Shown here one piece after another: positions 6,272 through 23,150 of a stretch of DNA of 64,000 bases (position 1 is its first letter; each line of letters opens with the position of its first letter). Origin of the DNA: Candidatus Woesearchaeota archaeon (GTDB lineage Archaea > Nanobdellota > Nanobdellia > Woesearchaeales > UBA12501); NCBI GenBank assembly GCA_030651375.1, contig JAUSFM010000003.1:184718-248717 (forward strand). Reading direction: 5' to 3'. Below the pieces are notes generated by a model that made no database searches, had not been told where the DNA came from, and saw nothing but the letters and a program-made list of their open reading frames with translations. A program made the position numbers and the translations under genes.

Positions 6272-6961
6272 ATGAAAGATGAAATTTTATCTTATCGTGA
6301 AATGTGTAACAAGATTCAAGTGAATACCATTCAAAGAGGGATGAATTTTCATATAAAAAAAGGCATTTCTGTTATTTTAATGTCAGTCAGACCTGGTGCC
6401 CCATATGATGATGAGATAGACATTGGGAAAAATTTATTGATTTATGAAGGCCATGACGTTCAAAAATCAAAACAAAATCCTGAACCAAAGAAGATTGATC
6501 AACCTAGATGGACAGATAATGGAACATTGACAGAAAATGGCAAATTTGTGAAAGCAGTAGAAAATCATAAAAAAGGATTGATTCCTCCAGAAAAAATACT
6601 GGTTTTTGAAAAGTTAAATTCGGGGATTTGGTCAGAAAAAGGATTATTTTCTTTAATTGATTATGAGACAAGAATTTCAAATGATAGAAAAGTTTTAAAG
6701 TTTATACTCAAACCGATTGATGAAAATATTGATATTCCAAAAGGAAAAGATGATGATGAACATAATAGACTTATACCAACACAAGTTAAAGTAGCCGTTT
6801 GGAAAAGAGACAAAGGTAACTGTGTTCTTTGTGGTTCGACCAAGAACTTACATTATGACCATGATGTGCCATTTTCTAAAGGGGGAAGTAGTATAACTGA
6901 AAAAAATGTCAGAATTTTGTGTGCTAAATGTAATTTGAAAAAGCATGATAAGATAGAATAA
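6272..6961 (+). CDS. HNH endonuclease-domain protein with uncharacterised N-terminal domain (possible type IV restriction-like enzyme)
   Basis: C-terminus CVLCGSTKNLHYDHDVPFSKGGSSITEKNVRILCAKCNLKKH is a canonical HNH/ββα-Me motif; sits in AT-rich island. Confidence 0.65.
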   Translation: MKDEILSYREMCNKIQVNTIQRGMNFHIKKGISVILMSVRPGAPYDDEIDIGKNLLIYEGHDVQKSKQNPEPKKIDQPRWTDNGTLTENGKFVKAVENHKKGLIPPEKILVFEKLNSGIWSEKGLFSLIDYETRISNDRKVLKFILKPIDENIDIPKGKDDDEHNRLIPTQVKVAVWKRDKGNCVLCGSTKNLHYDHDVPFSKGGSSITEKNVRILCAKCNLKKHDKIE

Positions 6962-7026
6962 GAGGTTGTTTTATTTCATTCTTCCTCATTTTTTCTCGGC
7001 CTTTTTTCCTCGTCAAAAAGATCGTG

Positions 7027-7165
7027 TTCCGGCAAAACCGGAATATTTCCGGAATTTCAGTGTTTTTTCGGAAATATTCCGAAACAACCGGATGTTTTTC
7101 CGGTGGCGCCGAAAATCTTCCGGTTTTTTCACAGCAAGGCTTATTAAGCAGAGTATCTGATATTC
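7027..7165. promoter_or_regulatory. Repeated intergenic module copy 1: cluster of TTCCGG-N5-CCGGAA palindromes followed by conserved CAGCAAGGCTTATTAAGCAGAGTATCT (TATA-like)
   Basis: gttccggcaaaaccggaat, atttccggaatt, ttcggaaatattccgaa, ccggatgtttttccggtggcgccg; about 70 percent identical to 49444..49585. Confidence 0.6.
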
Positions 7166-7192
7166 TTGAAACCCGCTGCGCGGAGCGGAACA

Positions 7193-7384
7193 ATGGCAAA
7201 AAATGCATTGCCCCAGTTTGAGGGTTATACAGTCGATCTACGACTTAGACAGTTTAGGAAAATAACAAAAACAAAGATGGAATTTGTTGATTTTTATTCA
7301 GTTAAAGGGGGAAAAATGGTCTCGAGATATATCAACTTTTTGAATGATCAGTTGGAGAGGATTGCCCAATATCAAAAAAATTAA
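7193..7384 (+). CDS. Small hypothetical protein downstream of repeat module
   Basis: ORF 7166..7384; start MAKNALP at 7193 about 30 nt after TATA-like element. Confidence 0.3.
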   Translation: MAKNALPQFEGYTVDLRLRQFRKITKTKMEFVDFYSVKGGKMVSRYINFLNDQLERIAQYQKN

Positions 7385-7404
7385 GAGGAGCTATTAAAGG
7401 GAAT

Positions 7405-9327
7405 TTAAATTTTCATCCTTGATCTAAAATAGTTTTCTACTTCTTTATCTACAAAATAGACATAACATCCTTTAATTCCCCTTGACATCAATACCCTATA
7501 AATGTTTTTTACATATTCATCAAATTTAAGTCTATCCTTCTTTTTTTTCAACATTGGGTCTTTAGTTCCCCCAATATCGGTGATTAGGCACTTATTTTTA
7601 GAATCATATTTAAGATCAGGACCAACAATTACTCCAACATAATCAAATTCAAATCCCTGAACGGTATAGATACAACCAACCTGTTTTATTCCCTCAGGTT
7701 TGTATGCCCATTCATACCAAGGCACATACCCTTGTGGTGGCTTGATATTCCCATGTGTCTCCCAAGGCAAACTAAAATCTTCAATTTTTACATCCCTTAC
7801 CAGATTCCCAGTTTGATCAAGTTCTGTTGACCACGGCCAACAATAACCTGCAACAAGTCTTGCAGTGACTCCTTTTTGAGAATTTTTTTCAGTTATAGTT
7901 TGATAAAGAAGTTTAGGAGAATTAAATATTTGAAAATCGAAGTTATCTTCTTTTGTTAAAATCAGTTTTGTTGAAGTATGACCAAGAACAGATTCGAGCC
8001 AATCCAAATAGTTGTCAGAACCATTGCACCTGAATTGAGATAACAACTCTGTTTCTTCGATTCTTTTCCCAAGTTTTTTTGCTGATTCTCTAATCAGGTT
8101 AGTGTTTCCAACTTCCGCACCCCTAATAACTTGCCGGTCATCAATAAAAAAGATCGATGTTTTCGCACACCTAATCAGTTGTTCTATCTGCGGCATATTT
8201 GTTCTGTACTCTTTTTTGGTAAAACGATGATCTGATTTTTCACCAATTCTATGAGCTTCGTCAACAATCAAAATATCTAGTTCGTTTTCATTAATTCGAG
8301 CAGGAACAAAAGGATTTAAGTTAGTAAATAAAACTTTTGCATTAATGTCCCCCACTTTTTGCCCATGTTCCATCTTATATTTGATTGCTTCAATCAAAGG
8401 TTTAGATCTAGATGCAAAAAAAATCTTATATTTCTTTTCTTTATTTGCTGCAAATTCAGCTAAAATATGCAGTGCAATCACTGTCTTTCCAGTTCCGGGT
8501 GCACCTTTCACTATTATTGCACTGTTTTCTTGGTTATGTTCTGCTTTTTTTACTTTGTCGATGATAAGATTTCTTGCATAAATTTGATCATCAAGCAGAT
8601 TAAAATCAGATTCATTTTTTATAACGTTTGAAGCATTATCTAAAAGTTTTCTTGAAGGTCTTTTAGGAGATTCCATAAATTTGTTAAAAATATCAAATCC
8701 GTCTTTTTTACTAAGTAAAAATTTTAGTCTAGCTGCTAGTATCTCGATGTCACTTTTCGTGTAAATTGGAAACTTTGCTATGAGTTCTTTATATCGGGGG
8801 TCAAATAAACCTTCCATTCCCTCAAAGTTGTAGTTTGGACAATAGACACACCCAACAAGACAAGTATCACTTTCTTCAAATATTTCTACAAACCCGATCA
8901 GATAATTATGATAACCCTGAACCTGTTGCGAAGGGTGTGCAACTTTTCTTTTGTCGCCCCCAGTATAAGTTTCCACAAAGTTTCCTTCTGCAGAAAGCGC
9001 TTCAACTGATTCCCATTGTTTCATCTCAATATGGATGATCATCCCTCTTCCTTCTTCATTTTTTCCAAACAATAAACAATCAATTCTTTTTTGCGTATAA
9101 GGAACTTGATACTCAAAAGAAAGATAAATATCCTGCAATTCACTTAATTCAAGAATGTTTTTGATCTCTTTTCCACTTTCCCTCCACGATCTACGTTCAG
9201 AATCGCCGGGTTTTCGACCATACAATCTCAAAAACTCGTTTTCCATCTTATCTGTGAATTTGTTTAGTACTACGTCTTTAAAGAACTCTTGTTGAGGTGC
9301 ATCATAAAGTAGTTCTCTGTTTAGCAT
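7405..9327 (-). CDS. DUF2075-family SF1 helicase-like ATPase with N-terminal PD-(D/E)xK nuclease-like domain
   Basis: 640 aa; N-terminal IDCLLFG...IIHIEMKQW (D...ExK); Walker A GAPGTGKT; Walker B ILIVDEAHR; C-terminal GIKGCYVYFVDKE typical of DUF2075. Confidence 0.75.
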   Translation of the reverse strand: MLNRELLYDAPQQEFFKDVVLNKFTDKMENEFLRLYGRKPGDSERRSWRESGKEIKNILELSELQDIYLSFEYQVPYTQKRIDCLLFGKNEEGRGMIIHIEMKQWESVEALSAEGNFVETYTGGDKRKVAHPSQQVQGYHNYLIGFVEIFEESDTCLVGCVYCPNYNFEGMEGLFDPRYKELIAKFPIYTKSDIEILAARLKFLLSKKDGFDIFNKFMESPKRPSRKLLDNASNVIKNESDFNLLDDQIYARNLIIDKVKKAEHNQENSAIIVKGAPGTGKTVIALHILAEFAANKEKKYKIFFASRSKPLIEAIKYKMEHGQKVGDINAKVLFTNLNPFVPARINENELDILIVDEAHRIGEKSDHRFTKKEYRTNMPQIEQLIRCAKTSIFFIDDRQVIRGAEVGNTNLIRESAKKLGKRIEETELLSQFRCNGSDNYLDWLESVLGHTSTKLILTKEDNFDFQIFNSPKLLYQTITEKNSQKGVTARLVAGYCWPWSTELDQTGNLVRDVKIEDFSLPWETHGNIKPPQGYVPWYEWAYKPEGIKQVGCIYTVQGFEFDYVGVIVGPDLKYDSKNKCLITDIGGTKDPMLKKKKDRLKFDEYVKNIYRVLMSRGIKGCYVYFVDKEVENYFRSRMKI

Positions 9328-9328
9328 A

Positions 9329-9691
9329 TTAATACTCCGTATATTTTTTGTTTAAACCTTTCACTGTCTCAACTGGATATTTTTGCTCATTTTTCTTCAT
9401 TTTGTGATCAAACTCAGTAGTAAGATCTATATCATATCGTTGTGCCAATCTGAGCAAAAAGTAGAATACATCAGCCATTTCTTCGGTTATTTCCTTTCGT
9501 TTGTTTAAATCATGAAACATACTTTCAACTTCTTTTTCGGATTTAAACCTAAAATGTTCCAGTAGTTCACTGGCTTCAGTTATGATTCCTATTGCTAAGT
9601 CCTTAGCATTATGATATTGATCCCAATCTCGTTCATCACAAAACGTTTTAACTTTTTCTTTTAATTCATTAATATTGGTTTTGTGGTCCAT
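9329..9691 (-). CDS. MazG-like nucleoside triphosphate pyrophosphohydrolase (small all-alpha NTP-PPase)
   Basis: 120 aa from MDHKTNINEL; EASELLEHF and EEMADVFYFLLRLA match MazG/YpjD-type motifs; stop TAA 1 nt before DUF2075 ATG (TAATATG). Confidence 0.65.
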   Translation of the reverse strand: MDHKTNINELKEKVKTFCDERDWDQYHNAKDLAIGIITEASELLEHFRFKSEKEVESMFHDLNKRKEITEEMADVFYFLLRLAQRYDIDLTTEFDHKMKKNEQKYPVETVKGLNKKYTEY

Positions 9692-9871
9692 AAGAGTAGT
9701 TAGATTAAAAGAGAGGTTTATAAAACTTGTCACGCTTCCAAAGCCTAGATTATCTGCTGATTTATAAAGACTAGATTGACAAAATGACAAGATATAAATA
9801 CCACCGAGAGTAGTATAATAAATTAAGAATGAATGTAGAAGAGGTGAAATACTAAATAAGATTCTTTTAGA

Positions 9872-10150
9872 GTGATAGATAAAAGTGATAGCGTGTCTCC
9901 TATGATGAAAACCGAATTTATGCAAGAAACAAAGAGATTTCAAGAGTTTGAAGATAAGGCTCTGAGCCAAGTTATGGAAGTTTCTAAAAGATTATTGGAA
10001 ACGTTTAGGTTTAGAAGGTTTTATGACTTATCTGTTTCTGAAGAGATTAATAAAAAGACACTTGAGGGAATAAGAGAATTCAGAAATAAGAATAAAATAT
10101 CACTCGATGATAGAGAGAGCTATCAAAGATATTTAAAATTAGTAGATTAG
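9872..10150 (+). CDS. Small hypothetical protein
   Basis: 92-aa ORF divergent from MazG-like gene. Confidence 0.3.
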   Translation: MIDKSDSVSPMMKTEFMQETKRFQEFEDKALSQVMEVSKRLLETFRFRRFYDLSVSEEINKKTLEGIREFRNKNKISLDDRESYQRYLKLVD

Positions 10151-10719
10151 AATTTTCTCTTCATCATCCATTGTTTAATTTCGGTTTCTTTTATTCTATC
10201 AGATTTAGCAAGTGGAATGATATTTAAACCTAACTCTTCACACGTCTTTAAAAATCCTGTGTCTCCTGAGTGAACGATGGTTATACCTTCAGCAAGAAAG
10301 CCTGCGATTATTATCACATCGTTCGGACCGATATGAAAACGCTGATTTTGTGTTTTTTCAACTACACGCTGATTATAAGTTTGCACATGTTGTTCTAGAA
10401 GATTATCAGATTCACGAGTGATTTTTTCAAGAAGAAAGGTGTTGCATAGGTTTTGCCAAGCTTCTTTTGCTTCTATTTTTGTAAAATGATACTGGTTAAT
10501 CAGGACACCAATGACCTCAGAAACTGAGATTTCATGATAATAAAATAAGTTTGGAGGAAAAGCAAAATGCCCTTTCTTAAACTGGTTAAAATCTCCTGCA
10601 AAAGCAACAATAATGTTTATAAGGGTACTTGAGTCTAAACCATTTTTTACAATACCCTTGATTGAAAGCTGGCCTGAAAGGACATAATAGGTACTTTCTG
10701 TTTTTTGATTTGTTGTCAT
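10147..10719 (-). CDS. Hypothetical protein (possible nuclease-like)
   Basis: Start MTTNQK; C-terminal DVIIIAGFLAEGITIVHSGDTGF acidic cluster; no firm family assignment. Confidence 0.35.
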   Translation of the reverse strand: MTTNQKTESTYYVLSGQLSIKGIVKNGLDSSTLINIIVAFAGDFNQFKKGHFAFPPNLFYYHEISVSEVIGVLINQYHFTKIEAKEAWQNLCNTFLLEKITRESDNLLEQHVQTYNQRVVEKTQNQRFHIGPNDVIIIAGFLAEGITIVHSGDTGFLKTCEELGLNIIPLAKSDRIKETEIKQWMMKRKF

Positions 10720-10941
10720 AAATTGCCCCTTTAGTATTAAATCAGAAGCAGCCAAGGGATTGCCCACTCCCCTGGACCACCCCTTTATGATACAAAAAAT
10801 GATTAAACTATTTAAAGATTGTGTTTAAAACTCACCTTTTCCATACTGTTCCACACACTTTTATCTTTCCTATTAATCACAATATTTATCCATCCCCCTG
10901 TCCACCACACTGCACACGTTCGCCGCAATCGCCCACACACC

Positions 10942-11258: not shown

Positions 11259-11795
11259 ATGATCGAAATGGGGCTTGACATCTTCGAAGATATTGTTGCA
11301 ACTTGGTTACAAACTAACGGATATTTTATGATGAACAATATTAGGTATGGTCATAACCAAGAGATTGATGTTTTAGCAACAAAATTGGGAAAGAATGGAA
11401 TTATTCACATTGAAGTTTCCTGTTCATCAAATCCTAGTGATATTGTGGGAACAAAGAATCACGAAAAAATTGGTTATGAACAAGCAGCAATAAATTTTGC
11501 AGAAAAGAAATTCTTTAATAAAGAAGTCAAGGGAAAAATTCTTGCTTTGTCTGGTCAGGAACCGAAAGAGAGATGGTTTATCCATGCAATAATGGACGAA
11601 CCGAAGCAGTTGGATATACTACGCGAAAAAGGTATTAAACCGATCAACATTAAAGATGTGATAAAAGATATTCAATCATCAGATCTGAGGGATTCTTCAG
11701 GAAATAAGAGGATAAAACAGCTTTTTGATATAATCAAAAAGATTAATGAGCAACAGAGCATCTCCACCCCATCACATCAACATCCACCTTTATGA
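11259..11795 (+). CDS. Hypothetical protein with restriction-endonuclease-like (Hjc-like) core
   Basis: NQEIDVLA...GIIHIEVS resembles PD-(D/E)xK core strand pattern. Confidence 0.35.
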   Translation: MIEMGLDIFEDIVATWLQTNGYFMMNNIRYGHNQEIDVLATKLGKNGIIHIEVSCSSNPSDIVGTKNHEKIGYEQAAINFAEKKFFNKEVKGKILALSGQEPKERWFIHAIMDEPKQLDILREKGIKPINIKDVIKDIQSSDLRDSSGNKRIKQLFDIIKKINEQQSISTPSHQHPPL

Positions 11796-11798
11796 ACA

Positions 11799-12404
11799 TC
11801 ACGCATAGTCCTTTTGATTGAGTATTTTATTCTTGAAATGGGTCAGCGCGCATTTTTTGGAGCAGAAATAAACTTGGCGACCCTTCCAAGTTCTTTCGTT
11901 ACACCTAAACATATAAAAGAGATATAGTTTTTGTGCGTCAGCTTTGCAATTTGCGCATGATATACTTTTTTTCTTTTTTAGGCATACGCCTTCAAAGCAA
12001 GATTGAAGCAATGCAGGAGTAAGTTTTTTCTTTTCTTTGGTGGTGAGGCGAACACCGAGAAACGTGCCGATGCGAGTATTGATATCGGGGTACTTTGAGG
12101 CGTTTAGTTTCTTGATTTGAGGAGAGGAAATCTTGCGAATACAATCGAAAGAGCAGACGCGTTCACCTGTACTGATAGCTGATGAATTGAGAAGATTTTG
12201 TTTATAAAAAGAGAATTCGAATTGTGCACCCTTTTTTCCACAGACAGTACAGGGGTTTGATACGCCATTCTTGGCGAAGGTGATGACTTTATCCCAGTTA
12301 ATATTCAGTTCGTCAAATTCTGTTAAGTTATTGATAGGAGAAGAATCAAAGGGATAAAAAGTAGTATACAAAAAATTTTCAATTTTGTTTTTTAATATAC
12401 TCAT
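11799..12404 (-). CDS. Cys-rich (zinc-finger-like) hypothetical protein
   Basis: Start MSILK; two CxxC...C clusters (CTVCGKKG, CANCKADA...CSKKC). Confidence 0.4.
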   Translation of the reverse strand: MSILKNKIENFLYTTFYPFDSSPINNLTEFDELNINWDKVITFAKNGVSNPCTVCGKKGAQFEFSFYKQNLLNSSAISTGERVCSFDCIRKISSPQIKKLNASKYPDINTRIGTFLGVRLTTKEKKKLTPALLQSCFEGVCLKKKKSISCANCKADAQKLYLFYMFRCNERTWKGRQVYFCSKKCALTHFKNKILNQKDYA

Positions 12405-12728
12405 GCTGCACACCCCCATAAAGTTCCGACAGGGGAAGAGTATAAAAAAGTTTCTTGTCACTGAAAAGGAGGTTGATTAACAGTGATTTAAATAAGGAGA
12501 TAATCCCGTCACAACCTTTAAATTACCCATCCTGTCTTGTCCAGTGGTTGGATGTGCCATCACGCAACCATTCCACACCTCCAGAAAAATATTCAGGGCA
12601 CATTAGGAGCATTGTGATTAGATGATGACCGGGTGTGCAGTGCCACATGCTATGAGGTGGCATGCAGAAAGAGGTATGGGTGAACTACCGCTGGCTGAAG
12701 CCCACGAGTTCAGGCGCTGCCTGCGCCC

Positions 12729-13250
12729 TTAAAGTAATTTCTCCATCTCGAGCATGAATTCTTTCGCTCTGTTCAGGGAAGTGGTTGCCTTGCCATGGAG
12801 TTCAGCTTCTTTCATTTCGTATTGGACATCGCTTCTCTTCTTCCTTTCAAAGTCAAAAGTCTCAATCAAAGCGTCTGTTTTTATGCCGGCGAGCGCCTCC
12901 TGTTGGGCTTTTTCATATTCTTCAAGCAGTGATTTTTTCAGTTTGTTTCTGACAAAGACAATGAGGGCATCGGCAGTTATTTTGTGGGATATCTTTTCCC
13001 CTATTTTGTATCCGAGTTTGTAGAGGACAGCATTGGCACTATAGTACATCGCATAGTAGGACGTAACAATAATCCACAAATCAGATTTCTTGTTTTGAAG
13101 CAGGAAACCAGCAATCTCAAGGCTATCCTTGGCATTTCGGCGCAAGATGGTATAAATAGGTTCCTGAAAGGATTGCTTTTTTAGGAGCCCGTCTTCAATG
13201 TATGCACGGACATTTTTTTCAGCTTCCTTAATTCTTGGTTCATCGAGCAT
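12729..13250 (-). CDS. HEPN-like domain protein, partner of upstream nucleotidyltransferase
   Basis: 173 aa all-alpha; 11-nt overlap with MNT gene; canonical Rx4-6H not clearly visible, call from context. Confidence 0.4.
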   Translation of the reverse strand: MLDEPRIKEAEKNVRAYIEDGLLKKQSFQEPIYTILRRNAKDSLEIAGFLLQNKKSDLWIIVTSYYAMYYSANAVLYKLGYKIGEKISHKITADALIVFVRNKLKKSLLEEYEKAQQEALAGIKTDALIETFDFERKKRSDVQYEMKEAELHGKATTSLNRAKEFMLEMEKLL

Positions 13251-13809
13251 TCGCGATCATCCGGTAATAGTCTTCTATTCCGAACAGAATAATGTTGTTT
13301 TTTATTGCTTCTGAAACAACGGTAAATTCTGTAGACTTGAGCATTGTCTGGAAATCAGCATACGTAATGGACGTGAGATGAATAGGTAAAGGAAGGAGAT
13401 TAGCTTGTTCTTCTATCTGTTCTGGCCGGTCGGTGATGAGAAGCAAGTCAATATCAGAATGGGTTGTTTGCTTTTTTTTCGCATGAGAGCCAAAGAGGAG
13501 TAAAATAAACTGTTGGTTTATTCCTCTGAAGCGGGAGTACAGTACGTTAAAGTTCTTATTGCGCGTTAATTCCTGCAGCCGGTGGTGTTCTACCGTAAAA
13601 ACAGAAGCATTGAAGTTTCGGTTAAAAGAACAGATGATGGTGTTTCCGTGCCGCACGGCGCTGATAACCCCTTCGCCCTGCAGTTTTTGCACGGCACCAT
13701 ACGCTGATTTGTAGTTTATTTTTCGTTTGAGAGCAATCTGCCGGATACTCAAATTGAGCTCTTGATGCTCTATAAGCAGGCGGAGGATGTTCAGTTTTTC
13801 ATTATCCAT
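13240..13809 (-). CDS. Nucleotidyltransferase (MNT) domain protein with N-terminal wHTH
   Basis: LLFGSHAKKKQTTHSDIDLLLI matches minimal nucleotidyltransferase GS-x9-DxD motif; N-terminal HTH-like region. Confidence 0.6.
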   Translation of the reverse strand: MDNEKLNILRLLIEHQELNLSIRQIALKRKINYKSAYGAVQKLQGEGVISAVRHGNTIICSFNRNFNASVFTVEHHRLQELTRNKNFNVLYSRFRGINQQFILLLFGSHAKKKQTTHSDIDLLLITDRPEQIEEQANLLPLPIHLTSITYADFQTMLKSTEFTVVSEAIKNNIILFGIEDYYRMIANAR

Positions 13810-13984: not shown

Positions 13985-14398
13985 TCACGCTTCAGCCGCA
14001 CATTCAGTATACGAATCAGCAAGGCCGTAGCGGTCGCTGACGGCGGTTGTTATTTGCTGGGTGAAGTTTTCTGTATGGGGAAGCAAGGATATGAGCTTAT
14101 TCCTCGCTTTTCCAACGAATTTGAGCTGGATCGTGAGCGCATTCTTTTCAAGGCGCGCTTTGAAATCGCAATGGATGATATTTTTGAGGGTGTATTTGAC
14201 GACGCCGAAAATGCGTGAGGCATCAAATATCCGTACGCCGGTGACAAAGCCGAGGTCGTCAATATCCGCGACAAAGTTGTGGAATTCAACGGATTGCTTA
14301 TAGTTCCGATTTTTTATTTTGAAGGTGAGAATATCATGTGCATAATCGTATATAATCTCTCCTTCATCTTTCGCGTCAAGGTGTTTGTTGGTTTTCAT
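13985..14398 (-). CDS. DUF2283-family small protein
   Basis: IIYDYAHDILTFKI...DIDDLGFVTGVRIFDAS resembles DUF2283 N- and C-terminal signatures. Confidence 0.5.
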   Translation of the reverse strand: MKTNKHLDAKDEGEIIYDYAHDILTFKIKNRNYKQSVEFHNFVADIDDLGFVTGVRIFDASRIFGVVKYTLKNIIHCDFKARLEKNALTIQLKFVGKARNKLISLLPHTENFTQQITTAVSDRYGLADSYTECAAEA

Positions 14399-14730
14399 GG
14401 GAGTGTGAAATGAGGAATTTCAACGGTGTCCATAAAGGACACAATAACGATTTTGTTTTTTTCTTTTTCAAGGATGAGCTTTCGATAGCCATCATTTCGG
14501 CGGTAATACGCTGCGTAACGGCCATTTTCTTGGATATATACTTTTCTTGGATTTTCTCGGACTACCATAAAGGTAAGCTCTTCTTCTTTAAAAACTTTTC
14601 TTAGGGCCTCTGACAGATGGTCGAACGCATGAGGCGAAACGATAACAGGGTGATTATGTACGAGCAATTTAAAATCCTTGCTTTCAATCTCTTGTATCGG
14701 TCGTGTAGTATAAAATTTCACATATTTCAC
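14395..14730 (-). CDS. DUF4258-family protein (toxin-like partner of DUF2283)
   Basis: HAFDHLSEALRKV motif; ATGA overlap with downstream DUF2283 gene. Confidence 0.5.
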   Translation of the reverse strand: MKYVKFYTTRPIQEIESKDFKLLVHNHPVIVSPHAFDHLSEALRKVFKEEELTFMVVRENPRKVYIQENGRYAAYYRRNDGYRKLILEKEKNKIVIVSFMDTVEIPHFTLP

Positions 14731-14857: not shown

Positions 14858-16315
14858 TTAGTCCTTTCCCACCATCTCCCGTATCTTCTCCACGATCCAT
14901 ATCATGCCTTCGGTATCGCGAGCGCAGTACGTTTCAAGATATTTGCGGGTTTTCCGTTTTTCCTCGTCGCTCATCCCCTTGAATGTCATGATGAAGAACG
15001 CGGCGCTCGCATCGTCGCCTTTGCCAATTTCGAAATCATCATATCCCTTGCCGATGAGTACCGGCATAACTGCCTTGATGGATGCACTTCCTTTCTGGTT
15101 GGGATGGTAGTAATGAAAGCCGCTAAATGGTGCGTAGAGGTCAACAATGCGGCTGATGACTGACCCAACCCATGTGGAATATTCAGGGAACGCCTCGGCG
15201 AGTTTGTTCAGCACTCCTTTTTCAAAGGATTGATTGTACACAACAATGCTTCCGGCGCTGCCCAGCGCTTGTTTCAGTTTTTTCAGAAGCAGTGGCCGCG
15301 GATCCTCTCGGCCATCAGCAAGGAATGAGTGATGGCTTGTTTTTCCGTTGGCCACGACGTGCACAGAAAACTGGAAGGGTATCGCCTGGTACGGCGACGT
15401 GCCATCGTACAACGGCACAGCAGTGCTGAATGTCTCAAAGTCAAAGTAATACAGTGGTTCTTTTAGTTGGGCAAGGAATGATTTTAATTGTTTCGTGTCT
15501 ATGTGGGGTTTATTCGATTGGATGCAGTCAATTTGAATCTTCTGCTTGGCGTTGAGCTTGGTGCCGGCCGGCACATCCATGAGCGATAGAATGTTGGCTT
15601 TGAAAAGCTCGTGCGACGCCTTGCCGCCTCGGTATAAATTAAACACGTTGTGTTCCGGCAGGAAATTCCAGCACTCTTCACACACGCAGTCGTGGCCATT
15701 TTCACAGCCGTTGCCGATGGTTGTTTCCGGCGGCGTTGGACTGTTGATGATTGCAAGAAGCGCCTCCACTTTGCCGGGCACACTCGGTAAACAAAGATCG
15801 ACCTGCGCGGTGATTTCTTCCTGCACAAGCAGTTCCGCAGGATTGATGGCACCGTGTTTCACATAGTCTTTGTTGACGTGCATCAGAAAGCATTTTCGTA
15901 TGGCAATGCCCGCTTGGGTGTAACAATATTTCTGAAAGGAAACATCCTCAATGTGCTCATCCTTTACCGAGCTGGAACTTTTCACTTCAACAATGTCCCA
16001 CTGGTTGTTTTCCACGGGAACAAGAATGTCAGCGCGCGCGTAGAGATTTCCCGCAACAAGACCGGCTTCAAACAGCGGCTTTCTCTGTTTCAGCGCTTCT
16101 GCGGTTTCCTTGATGTTGCGAGCGAATTCTTCAGAAAGCGAAATCCCGCTGGGAAACAATGTTTTAGCGAGATGCCCCACTTCATGCCCTTGGTCAAAAA
16201 TAAGCTGGGTGGCGGCGGTGTGCTTCGGAAGCCGCTCGGGCTGGTGAAACATCATCCACAGATGGCGCGGACAGGCAAGACCAGTTGCATATTTTGATTT
16301 GGTGAGGAAGCGCAT
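14858..16315 (-). CDS. DUF2779-like protein: N-terminal Cas4/RecB-like PD-(D/E)xK nuclease fused to C-terminal DEDD-type 3'-5' exonuclease
   Basis: ADILVPVENNQWDIVEVKSS (D...ExK); LYYFDFETFS (DxE exonuclease I motif); 485 aa. Confidence 0.6.
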   Translation of the reverse strand: MRFLTKSKYATGLACPRHLWMMFHQPERLPKHTAATQLIFDQGHEVGHLAKTLFPSGISLSEEFARNIKETAEALKQRKPLFEAGLVAGNLYARADILVPVENNQWDIVEVKSSSSVKDEHIEDVSFQKYCYTQAGIAIRKCFLMHVNKDYVKHGAINPAELLVQEEITAQVDLCLPSVPGKVEALLAIINSPTPPETTIGNGCENGHDCVCEECWNFLPEHNVFNLYRGGKASHELFKANILSLMDVPAGTKLNAKQKIQIDCIQSNKPHIDTKQLKSFLAQLKEPLYYFDFETFSTAVPLYDGTSPYQAIPFQFSVHVVANGKTSHHSFLADGREDPRPLLLKKLKQALGSAGSIVVYNQSFEKGVLNKLAEAFPEYSTWVGSVISRIVDLYAPFSGFHYYHPNQKGSASIKAVMPVLIGKGYDDFEIGKGDDASAAFFIMTFKGMSDEEKRKTRKYLETYCARDTEGMIWIVEKIREMVGKD

Positions 16316-16358: not shown

Positions 16359-19300
16359 CTACGTCGTGCCTGCGCTGCTCGTCACTTCCCCATAGATCTC
16401 ATCCACGCGTTGGGCAACCAAGTTTCCTAATTCAGTGTAGATGCCGCGGGTAAACGCGTTGTCACATTCAGGAACGTGGTTGCATTGGGCGGCGTATGCT
16501 GAAACTTTTGCAGCAACCTCTGGTTTATGGGCTTGGACGCAGTCAACGGTGATGCCGTTGAGGCAGATAAGTTCCATATCGTTTGCAAATCGCTGGGCAA
16601 GTTGAGTACCATCAGCGGCAGTCGGGAGCGTCGTAACCGCCGGTGGCGCAAGTTTTTTCTCAAGCCGGAGATCGAGGAGCACATCAGAAATCGTGCCGAG
16701 AAGCGTGTCAACTTGAGCGTCATACGCGTCAGTGCACGAAGTGATAGCGGTACAGAGCCCGCGGTATTGGTCGTCTTGCGCAAGGACAAAGTCTTTATTG
16801 GTGTTGAGGCAGTCTTCGGTTATGCCGCCCGGACAAATTCTGCTGACACGCTCGACAAAGCTGCCGGCGTATTGCGCGCCGGCTTCTTCTGGTGATGCGA
16901 CAGCAGCGACAGTTGGTGAGGCAGCAGCATACTGTTCAACCGCCTGCAGCACTGTTGCCTTGAATGTGCACCAGTCAAACAGTGGCCCGGGATCTTCATG
17001 GCCACCATACACGCCGTTGGGTTGGCCAGCGGTAAATCCTTCGCAGGAATAGCCAGAGGTGCCGTCGACATACTGCGGCCTGCCGATGGTGCTGTGGAAA
17101 TAGATGTGGTCAATGCTGATGCCGTAGCGTACCATGATTTCGGCAACGGTTTTTGCCAGTGTTTTCATTTGCGCATCGGGGAATGGTTCCCAGTATCTGG
17201 TCCCGCCAGGATAGCTCCACGCTTTTCCGTGCACCATGTTGAGCTGGTTGCGCACATCAATACATCCAGAACAGGGACTGTTGCCGGCATAATTCGCGAG
17301 GTCGATGCCGATGGCTTGACTGTTAATTCCGGGCTTTGCGCAGGCAGGATTATTGGCGCTGCAGCCTGCATGATACGTGATAATATCTTCTTGTTCGATT
17401 TGGATCATCGATCCATCGCGGTCAATGATGAAGTGCGTACCTACTTTTTCTCCATCGCTGTTAACTCCTTTGAAAAAGATATTTTTGTACGTGTCATACG
17501 CTGACGAACTGCCTGCAGTGATGTGAATAACGATGCTGCTGATTTTGCTACTTGAACGTATGGGCCGATCTACCGTGTCAGCGCGCGCATGGAACGCACA
17601 ATCATCGTCAGGTCCGCAGGCAGTTGCCGGATTTAAGTCGACAGAACCATAGCTTCCGAGTGTCACGATCTGCGGCGTGAATGGCCCTGAAATAACCGGC
17701 CCAATAGTTCCGGGGGTTGGTGTTGATGCGCCGGTGCCTGGAGCAGATGGCCCCGGAGAAACTGGTGGAACACTTGCCGGCCGCTGCGCACAGAGCGTCG
17801 CTGCCTGCGCTGGATTTTTCACAAAGGAGTCTTTGTCAGACACACAGGCATACTGCGCGCTATTCGGCGCAGGGCAGGGCACGCAGAAATTTCCAAATCC
17901 GCATTCCATATCGGTTGCACCGCCGAGCTTGCCGTTGCAGTCGCAAATATTTTGGTTGTTTGACGGGTCAACATACAATCCGTTGTTTTTGTCGGTGGTG
18001 GTGCACGCCTCGTAGCCGATGCACGAACCGGATGCAGAGCAGTAGTTGAGCCCTTGCGCAATGCCGCAGCGGCTTGAGGTAGAGGTACCCACACAATTAC
18101 ATTCTTGGTTCACGAATGCGTTGGATGTGCATGCAGGCAATTCGCCGGTGGCAGTCACTTTACTGCATGCAACTGGAATGTCAATCGCGTCTGCGCCGGT
18201 GAATTCGAGCGCCTTGCCGCCGAACCGCGCGACCGCGTCGCCGGGAATGCAGGTGTCCGGTCCGGGAATGTCGTTTTCAAATCGGGTCTTGCACGGGCGA
18301 AGCTCAAGAGATAATTTCCAGTGCACGGGATTTTGTGCTGTGATGTCGTCGCACTGGGTTGCCGCTGCGCGCTGTTGTGCGAGGAAGGCGATGCCGTCAG
18401 CGTAGAGTTTTCCTGGAAGAACCGAACCGTACTCTGGCTGGATGCGAAGCCCATGGTACGAAATAGTGCCGAGCGCGCTGTCGAAGCGGTAGATATTATT
18501 TTTCAGCAGGGCGGTTGTCGACGGTGAAAGTCCGGACGCGGAAAGTTCTGCGTCAGTGCAGGGGATAGCACCCGGCACAATTTCAAACTGGTAATTTCTG
18601 CTTCCTTCAAGGAGTTTTGCAAGGTCATCGCTCAACGATGCGTGCTGCACACTGTAGCAGAACGCGTCTCTGCCTGCGGCATCTTTGGTCCGGAACATCA
18701 ACAGGCCAACCGCGAGATTTTCGCGTGAAGGGTAACTAACATCAATCGACGGAAGACTGCGCAGGGGAAGTTTATTTCCGCCAGCTTCTGCAAAGTCTGG
18801 ATTGGTGTACGCAACAGTGCGCGCGTATCCTGCGGCGCCGCCGTACATACCGCGAGTGATCATATCTTCAGTCAAGACGACGCTGGGAATGGTGAACCGG
18901 GAAACGCCATCTTCAACAATCGCGCGCACCGCCATGGAGCGCGCGGCAGATGACGCAGCAGACGAACTGGTGGGTGCTGAAATCGTGCTGCCTGCGTACC
19001 GTTCGAGTGGAATGACATTACCGTTCTGGTCGCGCAGTTGGTACATCAGGAAGTACGGCACCTGCTGGCCGGCAAGTGAAAGTGCCTGTGCAACGTCGGG
19101 ACGGATAGTGCCTGCACGGTTGTTCGGGCTGTATTTTTCAAGCTCGACATCGACGTCAATCGGCTCGTTAACCATGAACACCGATTTGACCGGACGGGGC
19201 CGTTTCAGGAACGCTGCGCGCCCGAGTTGGCCGGCTGCGATTTCGCATTGGTATCCAGAAAGTTTGAACTGGCAGGAAAGCGGCGGCTCATCGCCAATCT

Positions 19301-22300
19301 GCTGAATTTCGATTATTTTTTCTTCAGTCTGGAAATTTCCCTGATTGTTCCGCCACTGCCAGTATAAGCGAACACGGTCAAAGCGATACGGAAGTTCTGC
19401 CGGAACATATGCGTCCATGTCGCCGTATTCGCCGGCTGCAAGCACGCCGGTGCCCATGAAGTTGGTGATGGGATAGCGTTTCTCGCCAATCTCTGCGCAA
19501 TCGCATTTGTTGTTGGCAAAGCCGTAGATTTGTTTGCAGTTTGTCGGGCTTGCAGTGCAGATAAGTTCTGCGCCGTAGGTTATTTCAGAGCCGGCGACAA
19601 GTCCGCCGGCGAGATGGTAAATAAATCGCGCGTTGCCGGTCACGGGATTGCTCGTCATGAATCGCCGCGTTTGTTTTGGATACAAAAAGCCCTCGCTCGC
19701 AACCGGCACGCTGCCGATGCCCGTCAAGGCACCTTCGATGTCAAGGTCGAAATCGCCGGTGAATGCGTAGAAGCACGCCGAGTGAATCAGGCTGCGTTCA
19801 TTAAGGATACTGTACAAATTTGATTTTCCATACCGGTCGGAAATCGCCGTGTGCATGTGCTCGCCGGCAGAGGAAACTGCTTTGAAAAAGCCGCTGATGC
19901 CCTGAAGCCGACCGCCGCCACCGCCGCCGGAGCCCGCACCGTAGCGCTGGGCAAAACATTTGACTGCTTCAATCAGGAAATCGCACAGTGTTTCTGAAAA
20001 CGCGCGCCGGCACATGCCGGTACTTCCTTCGCCTGTCAACAAAATGGATTGGAAGCACTGCCGGAACTGGACAAAGACGCGCTGGATAAGTGCAATATAG
20101 GTGTTGATGGCGGGCAGGCACATGCACCGGATTGAATTGACAATGCTGGACGTCGGGTCAACAACATAGTCGCGGTTCACCCGCGGCACGAGTCCGTATT
20201 TTTCCGCTTCTGCGCGTGTCAGGATTTTTTGGGGGAATTCAGGAACAAATTGTTCAAGCCCGCGGTCGTAGCCGACCACTTCGCCGGTTGCCGGATCTTT
20301 TCGCTCTTTCCGGTCAGCGTAGAATGTGCCGAGTTCCCACTGGCCATCTGCAATAAGCCGGAACCAGCGGTCGCGGATGGTGACTCTTTTTTTGTTGAGT
20401 GTTGGCTGGCTGTTGATTGCTTCAGTCACTTCAATGGTGCCATCGCGGGCAGGAAGTGTGCCGCCGTAGCGCACGCTGCCGACTAAGGGACGGACTTCTT
20501 CTTGGCAAATCGTTGAAGCGGATTCAACCGCCTGTCCGATGGGCCCGCCGCAGCTTTGTGCAGCGCGGGAAGATTTGGTTGCAGTGTCATAGATACATTC
20601 AGATTGCCGAAGCTCGTTGGTAAACCAGCACGCGCTGTCCCATTGATTGATGTATTCCTGCGCGCATTGTTTTTCCGGACTTGCGCCGGGCACTGTTGGA
20701 ATTCCAGAAAACGGAGTGAGCATTGACGACGATGAAGAGGAAAGCAATTCATCAGCAGCGTCGTACACTACCCCTTCGTTCATGCCGGGATTGCCGCACT
20801 GCGCTTCTTTTGCGTCGGCATTGGTGCTGCCGAGATCATAGTGCGCAGGATTAGTGGTGCCATCAGACTGAAGCGCGCGTGTCTTTGCCATGCTTGCCTG
20901 CGTGATGTGCACGGCGAGTGTGGGCGCTGCGGGACAGTACACGCGGTCGCATATCCATTTCATGTAGCGTTCGTAGTCCTTGCGTGACTCGCGCGACTGT
21001 ATGCATTGCTGTTTTTCAGGGCTGTCAGCTGCGTCGGCGTAGACGCCGGTGCAATCCAGTTTTTCGATGACAAGCTTGTAGTAGTACGCGGCAAAGCTGC
21101 CGAGGCAGGTTACAAATGTGCCGATCAAGACAAATTTCAGGTACTGCAAAATCTGGTTGAGCGTTTTGATTGCATCATCAAAAAAATGGATGGAATCTTT
21201 GAGCAGCCATGTGGGGAGCCAGCGCTCGTCAAGCTCAAGGTCGAGTGTCGTGACGACGTCAGTGCAGTGGAGTTGGGTGCGCGTAATTTTTCCAGCTCGG
21301 CCACCATACACGCCTGATGTTGAGGAAGGAGAGAGTGGTTGTTGGTAGTTTTGATATGAAGGACGGCCAGACACGCCGGAGATATACTGCGTGCCCGGTG
21401 GCGCCTGCGCTCCTGATGTTGCGGGTATGCCAGTGCCCATGCCGCTGGCGTCTTCGTATTCAAACAGCACTTCCATCTGCAATGGAATTTTTATGAGCAA
21501 ATCTTTTTTCGCGCTGATGTCACTGAGATTTTTTTGGAGGTAGGGAAGCTGGTTGAAGTTCACGACAATGCCGCCGACGGTGTAGTCATCACTCCAGGTT
21601 ACCTGCACGGGCTGACGCACGAGTGTTTCCGGATCAAATGCATAATCACGGCGGGCTTCAGTGCTCTGATGTAGTACGCGGAAACGAGGCGGCGACAAAA
21701 TAGTTGCACGGTCTGCGGGGCCGCGCCATTTCAGCTTGACGTTGAAGCCGAGCTGGGCAATGCCGTTGCGGAGATGCGCGGGGATGACGGTCGATGGAGT
21801 AATTTTTGATTGCTCAACTTCCCAGAAACCGCCGCTGCCGCACTTCGCAAACACAACCGACACCGGACCAGAAGTGGAACTTCTTCCAAGATCGTCCACA
21901 ACAAAAATCTGCAGCCTATTTTCAAACGTGCTGCCAACATCGTATTGCCTGCCGAAGGTGTTTGCCGACGAATCAAGCGGTTGCTGGGGCAGGTACTGCG
22001 TCAGGTTGGTCTGCACAAATTGAGTGAGGAGCACATCAATTGAAAATCTGCCGTCGGGTCCAGCAACAGCAGTATATTCTTTTTGCGGCGCCGCGCGCAC
22101 TGAAAGGCTTTTTACCAGATCGAGCAAGCTTGTGCTCCACGCGGAATTGGGAGTCACTTCATCATTGACGGTCACAAACACAACCGCGCCGGGCGTTGCA
22201 TTGCCGCGCACGGTGACTTTTTGTGTGTAGCTCGGGTTGAGTTCATTGAGGTTGTGCGAAAAGAGCTGGGGAGCAGGGCCGAGAATTTGAATTGTTTTTG

Positions 22301-23150
22301 ATTCCTGTTTTGTGTTGCCTGCTTCGTCTGCAAACACGAAATGAACGTCTGTTTTTTTGCCGATGTTCTGCGCAACGCTTTCAGAAACGGGAACACGAAT
22401 ATCAAATGCTCCGGCAGGCAGCTGCTGTTCGCTGACCGCGCCGCTGACGGTGATGGTCGCGACGATAGTTTCTGATGTTGTTCCTTTCAGCGCCAGCACA
22501 CCTTCAACAATGCTGATGTGCTGATCAAGTGAAACAACCGGCGCCACGGTATCAACCGTGACGTCGAATTCCTTGATGGTTTTCTGCACTGAGGTTTGGT
22601 TTGTTGCTTCATCAACAATTTCTTCAGCGCGGCCTTCGGCGATAACGACGATATGCGAAAGCCCTTCGTTGAGCGTGAAGGTGAGCGCGAATGCTCCTGC
22701 GCTGTCGGCAATGGTGATTGTGTGATACGATGTCGCGTTAGTAATCGGGAGTGCCGGATTGAGGTACGTTTTTACACGAGTGTGTGAATTGGTGGTGCCC
22801 TGCACCGTGAGCGTGCGCTTGTTTGTTTTTTTCGGCAGCTCAAGATTTAGCAGCACGCCGTATGCGCCGCGCTCGGATGAAAAGTTTCCGCCAGCGCCTT
22901 CTGCATCACTCGCGCCGTAGGGTGATGTTGGCAATGTGTCGGAGTATGCAGAAGTAGTTGAGGAGGAAGATGATGAATCAGATACATTTGAAGGGGTAGA
23001 AGAGGAGGATGGAGGCGTGTGCTCGTAGGTTGGCTGCGCGTGCACCACGGGTATGAGAATGACTAGGTACATGAAAAATGCCGCAATAATCTGTACGGTG
23101 TGCGCTGATTTCAGGCTCAAGTTCATGCTCATCCTCTTTTGTGTAGCCAT
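16359..23150 (-). CDS. Giant secreted surface protein (2263 aa) with Ig-like N-terminal region, Cys-rich repeats and a C-proximal N-acetylmuramoyl-L-alanine amidase (Amidase_2/PGRP) domain
   Basis: Signal peptide IIAAFFMYLVILIPVVHAQP; amidase signatures IVIHITAG, THFIIDRDGSMIQ, YHAG, NSQAIGIDL, HIYFHS, EDPGPLFDW at about 16970..17560; duplicated ICPGGITEDC / ICLNGITVDC modules at C-terminus. Confidence 0.8.
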   Translation of the reverse strand: MATQKRMSMNLSLKSAHTVQIIAAFFMYLVILIPVVHAQPTYEHTPPSSSSTPSNVSDSSSSSSTTSAYSDTLPTSPYGASDAEGAGGNFSSERGAYGVLLNLELPKKTNKRTLTVQGTTNSHTRVKTYLNPALPITNATSYHTITIADSAGAFALTFTLNEGLSHIVVIAEGRAEEIVDEATNQTSVQKTIKEFDVTVDTVAPVVSLDQHISIVEGVLALKGTTSETIVATITVSGAVSEQQLPAGAFDIRVPVSESVAQNIGKKTDVHFVFADEAGNTKQESKTIQILGPAPQLFSHNLNELNPSYTQKVTVRGNATPGAVVFVTVNDEVTPNSAWSTSLLDLVKSLSVRAAPQKEYTAVAGPDGRFSIDVLLTQFVQTNLTQYLPQQPLDSSANTFGRQYDVGSTFENRLQIFVVDDLGRSSTSGPVSVVFAKCGSGGFWEVEQSKITPSTVIPAHLRNGIAQLGFNVKLKWRGPADRATILSPPRFRVLHQSTEARRDYAFDPETLVRQPVQVTWSDDYTVGGIVVNFNQLPYLQKNLSDISAKKDLLIKIPLQMEVLFEYEDASGMGTGIPATSGAQAPPGTQYISGVSGRPSYQNYQQPLSPSSTSGVYGGRAGKITRTQLHCTDVVTTLDLELDERWLPTWLLKDSIHFFDDAIKTLNQILQYLKFVLIGTFVTCLGSFAAYYYKLVIEKLDCTGVYADAADSPEKQQCIQSRESRKDYERYMKWICDRVYCPAAPTLAVHITQASMAKTRALQSDGTTNPAHYDLGSTNADAKEAQCGNPGMNEGVVYDAADELLSSSSSSMLTPFSGIPTVPGASPEKQCAQEYINQWDSACWFTNELRQSECIYDTATKSSRAAQSCGGPIGQAVESASTICQEEVRPLVGSVRYGGTLPARDGTIEVTEAINSQPTLNKKRVTIRDRWFRLIADGQWELGTFYADRKERKDPATGEVVGYDRGLEQFVPEFPQKILTRAEAEKYGLVPRVNRDYVVDPTSSIVNSIRCMCLPAINTYIALIQRVFVQFRQCFQSILLTGEGSTGMCRRAFSETLCDFLIEAVKCFAQRYGAGSGGGGGGRLQGISGFFKAVSSAGEHMHTAISDRYGKSNLYSILNERSLIHSACFYAFTGDFDLDIEGALTGIGSVPVASEGFLYPKQTRRFMTSNPVTGNARFIYHLAGGLVAGSEITYGAELICTASPTNCKQIYGFANNKCDCAEIGEKRYPITNFMGTGVLAAGEYGDMDAYVPAELPYRFDRVRLYWQWRNNQGNFQTEEKIIEIQQIGDEPPLSCQFKLSGYQCEIAAGQLGRAAFLKRPRPVKSVFMVNEPIDVDVELEKYSPNNRAGTIRPDVAQALSLAGQQVPYFLMYQLRDQNGNVIPLERYAGSTISAPTSSSAASSAARSMAVRAIVEDGVSRFTIPSVVLTEDMITRGMYGGAAGYARTVAYTNPDFAEAGGNKLPLRSLPSIDVSYPSRENLAVGLLMFRTKDAAGRDAFCYSVQHASLSDDLAKLLEGSRNYQFEIVPGAIPCTDAELSASGLSPSTTALLKNNIYRFDSALGTISYHGLRIQPEYGSVLPGKLYADGIAFLAQQRAAATQCDDITAQNPVHWKLSLELRPCKTRFENDIPGPDTCIPGDAVARFGGKALEFTGADAIDIPVACSKVTATGELPACTSNAFVNQECNCVGTSTSSRCGIAQGLNYCSASGSCIGYEACTTTDKNNGLYVDPSNNQNICDCNGKLGGATDMECGFGNFCVPCPAPNSAQYACVSDKDSFVKNPAQAATLCAQRPASVPPVSPGPSAPGTGASTPTPGTIGPVISGPFTPQIVTLGSYGSVDLNPATACGPDDDCAFHARADTVDRPIRSSSKISSIVIHITAGSSSAYDTYKNIFFKGVNSDGEKVGTHFIIDRDGSMIQIEQEDIITYHAGCSANNPACAKPGINSQAIGIDLANYAGNSPCSGCIDVRNQLNMVHGKAWSYPGGTRYWEPFPDAQMKTLAKTVAEIMVRYGISIDHIYFHSTIGRPQYVDGTSGYSCEGFTAGQPNGVYGGHEDPGPLFDWCTFKATVLQAVEQYAAASPTVAAVASPEEAGAQYAGSFVERVSRICPGGITEDCLNTNKDFVLAQDDQYRGLCTAITSCTDAYDAQVDTLLGTISDVLLDLRLEKKLAPPAVTTLPTAADGTQLAQRFANDMELICLNGITVDCVQAHKPEVAAKVSAYAAQCNHVPECDNAFTRGIYTELGNLVAQRVDEIYGEVTSSAGTT

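Follow-up and report, generated by a model that had tools for sequence, protein, structure and literature searches.

A MazG-like pyrophosphatase gene coupled to a nuclease–DUF2075 helicase gene in a woesearchaeal genome: a plausible defence module of the Nhi/AbiO kind

Introduction

Several phage-resistance systems are known in which a PD-(D/E)xK nuclease and a DUF2075-type helicase are carried on a single protein. Phage restriction by Nhi (SERP2475) of Staphylococcus epidermidis requires both the nuclease and the helicase activities, AbiO of Lactococcus gives phage resistance through a single protein with a PD-(D/E)xK nuclease and a DUF2075-type helicase, and the Nhi-like system SG141 of Bacillus cereus FSL H8-0482 is a verified single-gene defence (Millman et al. 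2022). Toxicity has been described for AbiO at high copy and for one Nhi homologue. The subject of the present work is a pair of adjacent genes, encoding a MazG-like nucleotide pyrophosphatase and a nuclease–DUF2075 helicase protein, in a 64 000-nucleotide stretch of DNA (‘the window’) from a Candidatus Woesearchaeota archaeon (assembly GCA_030651375.1, contig JAUSFM010000003.1, positions 184 718–248 717).

A pair of this composition has been listed before. Table S2 of Millman et al. 2022 (bioRxiv 10.1101/2022.05.11.491447) contains a candidate system termed ‘Pyrophosphatase’, which is a MazG-like plus DUF2075 gene pair. In that study, 45 candidates chosen from defence-island statistics were expressed from native promoters in E. 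coli and B. subtilis and challenged with 26 phages, and 21 of the 45 were protective. The pair was represented by SG192 from Bacillus firmus LK28, which comprises a 98-amino-acid (aa) pyrophosphatase and a 643-aa DUF2075 protein and for which observed defence is marked ‘x’, and by SG193 from B. thuringiensis Lr3/2, for which the entry is ‘Cloning failed’. The candidate is neither named as a system nor discussed in the main text of that report. As in the window, both entries place a MazG-like pyrophosphatase of about 100 aa next to a DUF2075 protein of about 620–640 aa. The MazG proteins of SG192 and the window are 52% identical (E 9e-29) and the DUF2075 proteins 28% identical and collinear from residue 6 (E 7e-54); SG192 is, however, a distant bacterial orthologue, and the window copy is archaeal (DPANN).

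A literature search, which was incomplete and whose silence is not proof of absence, found no paper joining DUF2075 with MazG, and the sole co-mention of Schlafen and MazG was a cancer study with no bearing on the pair. An earlier reading of the window made from the sequence alone had held that the combination was not a named system. This stands for the MazG–DUF2075 pair itself, which is unnamed and unvalidated, but Millman et al. 2022 had put the pair on their list of candidates before, and the nuclease–DUF2075 architecture already carries names (Nhi, Nhi-like, AbiO). What is new here is the breadth and tightness of the coupling over both prokaryotic domains, the shuffling of the modules, the assignment of the pyrophosphatase to the DCTPP1 type with a mapping of its pocket, and the recurrent company of modified-base readers.

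The gene pair and its conservation

Both genes lie on the minus strand of the window. The upstream gene (9329–9691) encodes a 120-aa MazG-like all-alpha nucleoside triphosphate (NTP) pyrophosphatase, DCTPP1/RS21-C6-like and assigned through Pfam PF12643. The downstream gene (7405–9327) encodes a 640-aa protein in which Pfam and motif analysis place a PD-(D/E)xK nuclease before a DUF2075/SLFN-g3 superfamily 1 (SF1) helicase, in an Nhi/AbiO-like architecture. The sequence-only reading had described these two genes with a TAATATG junction, and the arrangement and its coordinates hold: on the coding strand, the stop and start codons read TAA-T-ATG (9331–9325), leaving 1 nucleotide (nt) between the end of the MazG gene and the ATG of the DUF2075 gene. 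The ATG at 9691 was taken as the right MazG start because the homologues are about 120 aa long. The 640-aa protein is 100% identical to database entry P0001, ‘DUF2075 domain-containing protein [Candidatus Woesearchaeota archaeon]’. A TATA-box-like element, TTTATAAA (9717–9724, minus strand), can be read 26–33 nt before the MazG ATG and is a possible archaeal promoter, a candidate for the production of a leaderless bicistronic messenger RNA. A sigma-70 promoter scan was set aside, the bacterial model being uninformative for an archaeon. The AT-rich island in which the pair had been placed is evident from a GC fraction of 0.32–0.37 across 6–12 kb, against about 0.47–0.57 in most of the window.

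The conservation of the pair was studied from both of its ends. In a forward scan, a 20-sequence DUF2075 alignment was searched against one genome per species (185 579 species genomes) and the best 80 loci were analyzed. Of at least 600 pattern matches, 554 encode a DUF2075 relative, and the best 80 loci, at 38–74% identity to the window protein, span DPANN, Euryarchaeota, Thermoproteota, Bacteroidota, Patescibacteria, Omnitrophota, Bacillota, Acidobacteriota and other phyla. In 66 of the 77 assessable loci (86%), a MazG open reading frame (ORF) in the same orientation directly precedes the DUF2075 gene, a figure that derives from 66 of 80 after exclusion of the 3 among 14 negatives that had no upstream sequence at all. 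In a reverse scan, a metagenome search seeded with the MazG protein, DUF2075 stood immediately downstream in 56 of the 76 assessable loci, and 12 of the 20 negatives had less than 600 nt of downstream sequence. The two genes do co-occur elsewhere, and the sequence-only reading is thus decisively spared the refutation that it had named for itself, a lack of co-occurrence in other genomes.

The junction between the genes was constrained, falling between a 14-nt overlap and a 6-nt gap (−14 to +6 nt) in 111 of 119 pairs; a 4-nt ATGA overlap was commonest, in 43 pairs, followed by a 2-nt gap in 37. Even at 31–35% identity the two genes are still found together, on plasmids of Halalkalicoccus jeotgali and Priestia aryabhattai, where RefSeq labels the products ‘nucleotide pyrophosphohydrolase’ and ‘DUF2075 domain-containing protein’. 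The pairing is far beyond chance, and in archaea and bacteria alike the MazG and DUF2075 genes are inherited together and coupled in translation.

The history of the two partners was then compared through their distance matrices, which are weakly correlated (r = 0.23, Mantel p ≤ 0.001). Close and distant DUF2075 proteins alike are accompanied by MazG subtypes that are about 40% and about 70% identical to the window copy. Simple co-divergence was rejected on this mirror-tree result and module shuffling is preferred. Since MazG subtypes have been shuffled among DUF2075 clades with their adjacency kept, selection appears to act on the pairing, and the linkage would be functional and not merely historical.

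No third gene was universal across the loci, the extra genes being specific to subclades (a second DUF2075 paralogue, an RNase_T exonuclease, a TPR-peptidase or a Cas4-like protein). An RNase_T/DnaQ-like 3′-5′ exonuclease is encoded directly downstream of DUF2075 in seven loci (L007:2657–3235, L009:6894–7472, L108, L111, L114:6253–6870, L137 and L145) and may be a subclade-specific third component. On the H. jeotgali plasmid (L161), a gene of the endonuclease/exonuclease/phosphatase family (7921–9060) directly follows the pair. On the Bacillus cereus plasmid pb1 (L164, 3211–6803), a DUF2075 clade at 25% identity is preceded by a PRA-PH-type all-alpha NTP pyrophosphatase and an HNH_4 protein, so that the theme of an NTP pyrophosphatase before DUF2075 recurs, apparently independently. 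Decayed copies were also seen. The MazG gene is split in L008, and L025, L036, L050, L051, L058 and L010 have a DUF2075 gene that is either split or truncated at its N-terminal end; such interrupted or truncated copies of either gene are consistent with gene flux.

The MazG-like pyrophosphatase

The product of the upstream gene matched PF12643 at E 1.5e-14 with 54.4 bits, where the cut-off is 27, and had 3508 homologues at E ≤ 1e-5, the best 120 listed being 119–143 aa in length. The nearest solved structures were those of mouse and human DCTPP1 (2a3q, 6sqw; E 2.6e-17), aligned without gaps over residues 8–119 (112 residues). The predicted metal-binding carboxylates, E39 and E42 (9566–9577, minus strand) together with E71 and D74 (9470–9481, minus strand), align with E63, E66, E95 and D98 of DCTPP1 and are conserved at 98–99% among 147 homologues. 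Judged by these features, the product is an all-alpha NTP pyrophosphatase with its catalytic residues intact, and it belongs to the DCTPP1 type, which cleanses dCTP and 5-modified dCTP.

DCTPP1 holds cytosine in a pocket where Trp47 and Trp73 form a sandwich and His38 and His51 a selectivity filter, and the enzyme blocks the misincorporation of modified dCTPs (PMC13291643). The pocket residues were mapped onto the window protein via the PDB alignment. Within the shared all-alpha MazG-like fold family, the window protein keeps, besides the four metal ligands, the equivalents of W47 and H51 (W23 and H27, both at 98%) and of F41 and Y129. It differs in having Phe for Trp73 and Val for His38, and DCTPP1 is a stand-alone eukaryotic house-cleaning enzyme. 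The pocket being mostly kept but altered at these two places, a pyrimidine or cytosine-type substrate is plausible for the window protein and not established. Depletion of dNTPs or alarmones, which the sequence-only reading had suggested as possible, goes further than these data, in which the nearest relative is the house-cleaning dCTP pyrophosphatase DCTPP1.

Scanning the MazG protein against PADLOC gave no match at E ≤ 0.01, and it is therefore not a component of any PADLOC 2.0.0 system. Enzymes that remove deoxynucleoside triphosphates (dNTPs) are encoded in defence islands, as in the nucleotide-depletion defences that employ a dCTP deaminase or a dGTPase (Tal et al.). The enzymes of those systems are large, regulated single proteins with different folds, so that no homology would be expected, and they deplete canonical dNTPs, whereas the window module would pair a small pyrophosphatase of the house-cleaning type with a nuclease-helicase.

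The MazG clade was also encountered without a DUF2075 partner. A McrB-like AAA_5 protein, with a weak EVE match in the case of L156, is encoded after it in L095 (4613–6298) and L156 (992–3808). In L148 (4460–5398), as read from the sequence, the MazG clade is followed by a DUF4268 nuclease and then by a type I methylase-like gene.

The nuclease-helicase

The N-terminal domain of the 640-aa protein (aa 1–236; 8620–9327, minus strand) is restriction-endonuclease-like. The D…EMK motif of the sequence-only reading can be recognized as D83 (9079–9081) and E101-M-K103 (9019–9027), E72 is likewise predicted to be catalytic, and a Q135..Y139 motif is also present, all on the minus strand. E72, D83, E101, K103, Q135 and Y139 are invariant in 72 homologues (33–100% identity). 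A model of the domain, built with a 72-sequence alignment, gave an alpha-beta-beta-beta-alpha-beta fold of the restriction-endonuclease-like type, which agrees with the motif. Assignment of the domain as a PD-(D/E)xK nuclease is thus supported by motif and predicted fold.

The remainder of the protein matched PF09848 (SLFN-g3_helicase) at E 1.4e-88, over residues 270–627 and profile positions 3–354 of 354, and the DUF2075/SLFN group-3 SF1 helicase domain occupies 7447–8520. The SF1 boxes noticed earlier are present as Walker A GAPGTGKT (8482–8505, aa 275–282) and Walker B DEAH (8251–8262, aa 356–359), again on the minus strand, and both motifs are invariant or nearly so among the homologues. 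QGFEFDY and YRVLMSRG motifs lie close to the C terminus. The downstream gene, as far as its sequence can tell, encodes a predicted PD-(D/E)xK nuclease and an SF1 DUF2075 helicase/translocase in a single polypeptide. An AlphaFold model of the whole protein, made with a 20-sequence alignment, was discarded because of its mean pLDDT of 57.7 and an unreliable helicase part; a Foldseek search of the PDB with this model returned generic P-loop matches only, and PDB sequence searches with the DUF2075 protein or its profile found nothing besides Walker A matches.

The relationship to the verified defence protein SG141 was clear at the profile level. Both proteins carry an N-terminal nuclease motif of the form FEY..R.D..L...IE.K ahead of a DUF2075 P-loop helicase, and homology extends across window residues 18–419 (hhalign probability 97.3%, E 2.6e-11; BLASTP 22% identity, 1e-10). 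SG141 differs in being a single-gene system of very divergent sequence with no MazG partner described. The comparison nonetheless identifies the 640-aa protein, at the level of sequence profiles, as a distant but real homologue of the Nhi-like protein.

The protein was also compared with the PADLOC models. With Nhi and AbiO it shares, on one polypeptide, a PD-(D/E)xK nuclease and an SF1B DUF2075/SLFN_3-like helicase, but the matches are limited to the N-terminal half of the helicase: positions 177–365 of 468 in the AbiO profile (E 6e-15, 53 bits) and 185–332 of 470 in the Nhi profile (E 1e-12, 45 bits). The known systems are moreover single-gene and lack an NTP pyrophosphatase. A third relative is PDC-S41, a paralogous nuclease–DUF2075 protein that adjoins the MazG–DUF2075 pair in eight loci (Bacteroidales and others); against this model the window protein scored 72.7 bits in 3 fragments, where true members reach E 1e-288, and it is 21% identical to the paralogue in L022. 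The suggested search for known defence systems, carried out with the PADLOC models, yielded partial matches of the 640-aa protein to PDC-S41, AbiO and Nhi, none of them full length, and left the MazG protein unmatched.

Tandem DUF2075 paralogues occur in L022, L024, L027, L029, L032 and L058 (at about 6900–8940), in L070 and in L162. In Bacteroidales loci it is a PDC-S41-type protein that comes after the pair; Rufibacter carries MazG with two DUF2075 genes, and on a Hymenobacter plasmid two DUF2075 genes stand without MazG.

The label ‘Schlafen-like’ given to the protein earlier is apt for the helicase domain (SLFN group-3) and for that domain only, as no Pfam match to the AlbA_2-type RNase core of Schlafen was found in the DUF2075 protein even at E ≤ 1. 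The eukaryotic group III Schlafens (SLFN5/11/13) thus share with it the group-3 helicase domain alone, and the work on bacterial Schlafen defences of 2025–26 is about the RNase domain and not about DUF2075. The ATP-dependent restriction enzymes in which a nuclease is fused to a motor (Type ISP LlaBIII/LlaGI, HsdR, SauUSI) and the McrBC type IV systems differ from the window protein, whose motor is of the SF1 DUF2075 type and which has neither a methyltransferase nor a target-recognition domain.

The family as a whole comprises 588 representatives of 50%-identity clusters at E ≤ 1e-30 and 2085 at E ≤ 1e-10. Fused domains were seen in members P0386, P0479, P0496, P0440 and P0467, namely N6_Mtase, a Type ISP C-terminal specificity domain, caspase, a PNP_UDP_1 phosphorylase and a PIF1 helicase. 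A sister clade at about 35–40% identity often has a C-terminal LexA-like Peptidase_S24 domain (L015, L017, L029, L060, L078 and many of P0241–P0360), which hints at activation or release through RecA/DNA-damage signalling.

Function of the pair

The distribution of the family is patchy, and archaeal and Bacteroidota DUF2075 copies are about 61% identical. Relatives are carried on 112 plasmid records. They are rare in viruses, being present in 7 of the 2.9 million contigs of IMG/VR and in 4 of 50 697 phage records, and a virus-borne origin was rejected on these numbers. The flanks of the pair are variable, including RadC, TPR-peptidase, McrB-like, McrC-like, YhcG/DUF1016, Cas4-like PDDEXK_1, HNH, HipA, HEPN and Fic genes. 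The 140 nearest neighbours of the 80 loci include PDC-S01/S02/S41, Cas4, RmrA, McrC-like, YhcG, RadC and HipA, a count that has no background rate beside it. On the Priestia plasmid, the pair stands between a restriction endonuclease, a MutT and an ABC-three-component protein and a type I restriction-modification (RM) system, with a gene for a MrcB_N-domain protein directly before it. The defence-like company that had been noticed around the window pair (HEPN/MNT, which is PDC-M05, a Cas4-like protein and HNH) is in this way matched by variable defence flanks elsewhere.

The interpretation of these data that we favour, and hold to be probable on balance, is that the pair is a horizontally mobile two-gene operon acting against invading DNA, whether of viruses or of plasmids. 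It is a plausible defence module and a variant of the known Nhi/AbiO kind. This reading draws on the tight linkage of the genes, the conserved catalytic residues of both enzymes, the architecture shared with AbiO and with Nhi, whose phage restriction needs both activities, the homology to SG141, the PADLOC matches, the patchy distribution, the AT-rich island, the variable flanks, the domain fusions and the shortlisting of the pair by Millman et al. 2022. The two genes would be co-transcribed from a promoter upstream of mazG, and coupled translation would hold both proteins in a fixed proportion. The helicase-nuclease would then load on foreign or replicating DNA and degrade it using ATP, in the manner of Nhi, and the pyrophosphatase would hydrolyse non-canonical, probably cytosine-derived, dNTPs to dNMP and pyrophosphate.

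This last step could take either of two forms, both compatible with the data. In one, the enzyme would deny the virus the modified nucleotides that it needs for protected DNA; in the other, it would prevent modified nucleotides, including those recycled from a degraded invader, from entering the host chromosome, which the nuclease would then leave intact. A more specific proposal, put forward tentatively and, as it stands, rather unlikely, is that the MazG partner is a dedicated pyrophosphatase for modified dNTPs made by viruses, such as 5-methyl-, 5-hydroxymethyl- or otherwise substituted dCTP; the operon would then be a two-pronged defence, acting on the nucleotide pool in either of these ways as its coupled nuclease-helicase destroys the genome of the invader. 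The circumstances that point to a link with modified cytosine are the kinship with DCTPP1, the McrB-like proteins beside the MazG clade in L095 and L156, the MrcB_N gene on the Priestia plasmid, the probable SRA-HNH neighbours described below, and a DUF3883/NOV_C gene that adjoins DUF2075 in Streptomyces, a family whose association with modification-dependent enzymes was noted by Lutz et al. McrB/McrC-like, SRA-HNH or MrcB_N genes lie within 5 kb in 10 of the 80 loci, and since there is no background rate for this count, the link of the pair to readers of modified cytosine is suggestive only.

Several observations weigh against the favoured interpretation. The sole completed published test of the pair (SG192, in E. 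coli and B. subtilis with 26 phages) showed no defence; a dedicated role of the pyrophosphatase in cleansing modified dNTPs, if it has one, would account for the lack of a phenotype with a standard phage panel. The nuclease-helicase is kept without MazG in 11 of the 77 assessable loci, and MazG is therefore dispensable for carriage. No MazG–DUF2075 fusion protein was present among the homologues listed. In the substrate pocket, W73 of DCTPP1 is replaced by F49, which is still aromatic, and the selectivity residue His38 by V14. The modified-base readers near the pair could, finally, be mere defence-island company.

The negative phage test would also suit a housekeeping role in genome maintenance, in which the pyrophosphatase cleans the dNTP pool and the helicase-nuclease processes DNA with aberrant bases or stalled forks, the whole being a mobile accessory repair module. 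Enzymes of the DCTPP1 type are classical house-cleaning enzymes, a MutT gene lies near the pair on the Priestia plasmid, and the seven loci with an RNase_T/DnaQ-like exonuclease after the pair could be read in the same direction. A maintenance function is nevertheless difficult to reconcile with so patchy a distribution (at least 554 loci with a relative among the 185 579 species genomes), with near-identity across domains and atypical GC content, or with occurrence on plasmids. The pair also lacks a conserved neighbourhood, RM, caspase and S24 domains occur in fusions within the family, and the validated relatives are antiviral. We regard this explanation as improbable.

An arrangement with a small gene first and with stop and start overlapping or abutting is also that of type II toxin–antitoxin operons, and the toxicity of AbiO at high copy and of one Nhi homologue, the failed cloning of SG193 and the decayed copies of either gene would all fit a pair in which MazG restrains or licenses a potentially self-destructive nuclease-helicase, for instance through control of a nucleotide cofactor or signal or by binding to the protein, until it fires abortively on infection. 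The catalytic residues of MazG, however, are all kept, at 98–99%, as expected of an enzyme and not of a degenerate inhibitor. The loci with the nuclease-helicase alone include close relatives of paired loci, and the protein is therefore not lethal without MazG. The MazG clade also precedes unrelated effectors (the McrB-like proteins and the DUF4268 nuclease), and Pfam finds no DNA-binding or antitoxin-like domain in it. A toxin–antitoxin-like or regulatory pair of this sort is accordingly quite improbable. Very improbable, in turn, is a mobile-element cassette that joins a replication or maintenance helicase-nuclease to a nucleotide-pool enzyme, or that serves as a weapon against competing elements and not in host defence, since the plasmid records, the RadC, transposase and integrase fragments near some loci and the few IMG/VR and phage records that would speak for it are set against rarity in viruses, the lack of a conserved element backbone with the pair, and a window island with no integrase, att-like repeat or adjacent tRNA around it.

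If the pair does work as a defence, the Nhi/AbiO class would gain an obligate nucleotide-pool enzyme, dNTP sanitation, the function of DCTPP1 in mammals, would be tied to antiviral restriction, and the short list of defence modules documented in DPANN archaea would grow by one. Should the modified-nucleotide proposal also be true, selective cleansing of the modified-nucleotide pool combined with restriction would be an undescribed mode of immunity, common to DPANN archaea and many bacteria. The strict coupling despite the shuffling of MazG in any case raises the question of what service the pyrophosphatase renders to the nuclease. The value of the finding is tempered by the prior shortlisting of the pair and the negative outcome of its only completed test.

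Neighbouring genes in the window

The gene convergent with the pair (6272–6961, plus strand) encodes a 229-aa HNH endonuclease (HNH E 8e-08). The N-terminal half of this protein matches SAD_SRA over nearly the full length of the profile, at E 0.009 and thus below the cut-off; from this weak match, the protein is probably a modification-dependent SRA-HNH enzyme. HNH homologues adjoin the pair in L049, L056, L072 and L138, the L072 protein being 48% identical. The HNH neighbour is probably an independent type IV-like enzyme.

On the other side of the pair, the neighbours proposed in the sequence-only reading were recovered with one exception. HEPN (12729–13250) and nucleotidyltransferase (MNT; 13240–13809) genes were each identified by Pfam and PADLOC and together form PDC-M05. 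A DUF2283 gene (13985–14398) was identified by Pfam, and a Cas4-like plus DUF2779/UU173 protein is encoded at 14858–16315. The gene at 14395–14730, which had been read as DUF4258, has no Pfam match.

Two small ORFs that overlap by 4 nt on opposite strands (9872–10150, plus; 10147–10767, minus) lie immediately before the operon; the 206-aa product has a weak PIN match (E 0.015) and the 92-aa product none. The AT-rich island also holds genes for a small nuclease that is YraN/UPF0102- or Mrr-like and weakly matches HARE-HTH (11259–11795, plus) and for a 220-aa Cys-rich protein with no family match (11799–12461, minus). No convincing att-like direct repeat, adjacent tRNA or integrase was found at the boundaries of the island. 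Right after it come very large ORFs on the minus strand, at 16359–23150 (2263 aa), 26032–31386 (1784 aa) and 31426–35040 (1204 aa).

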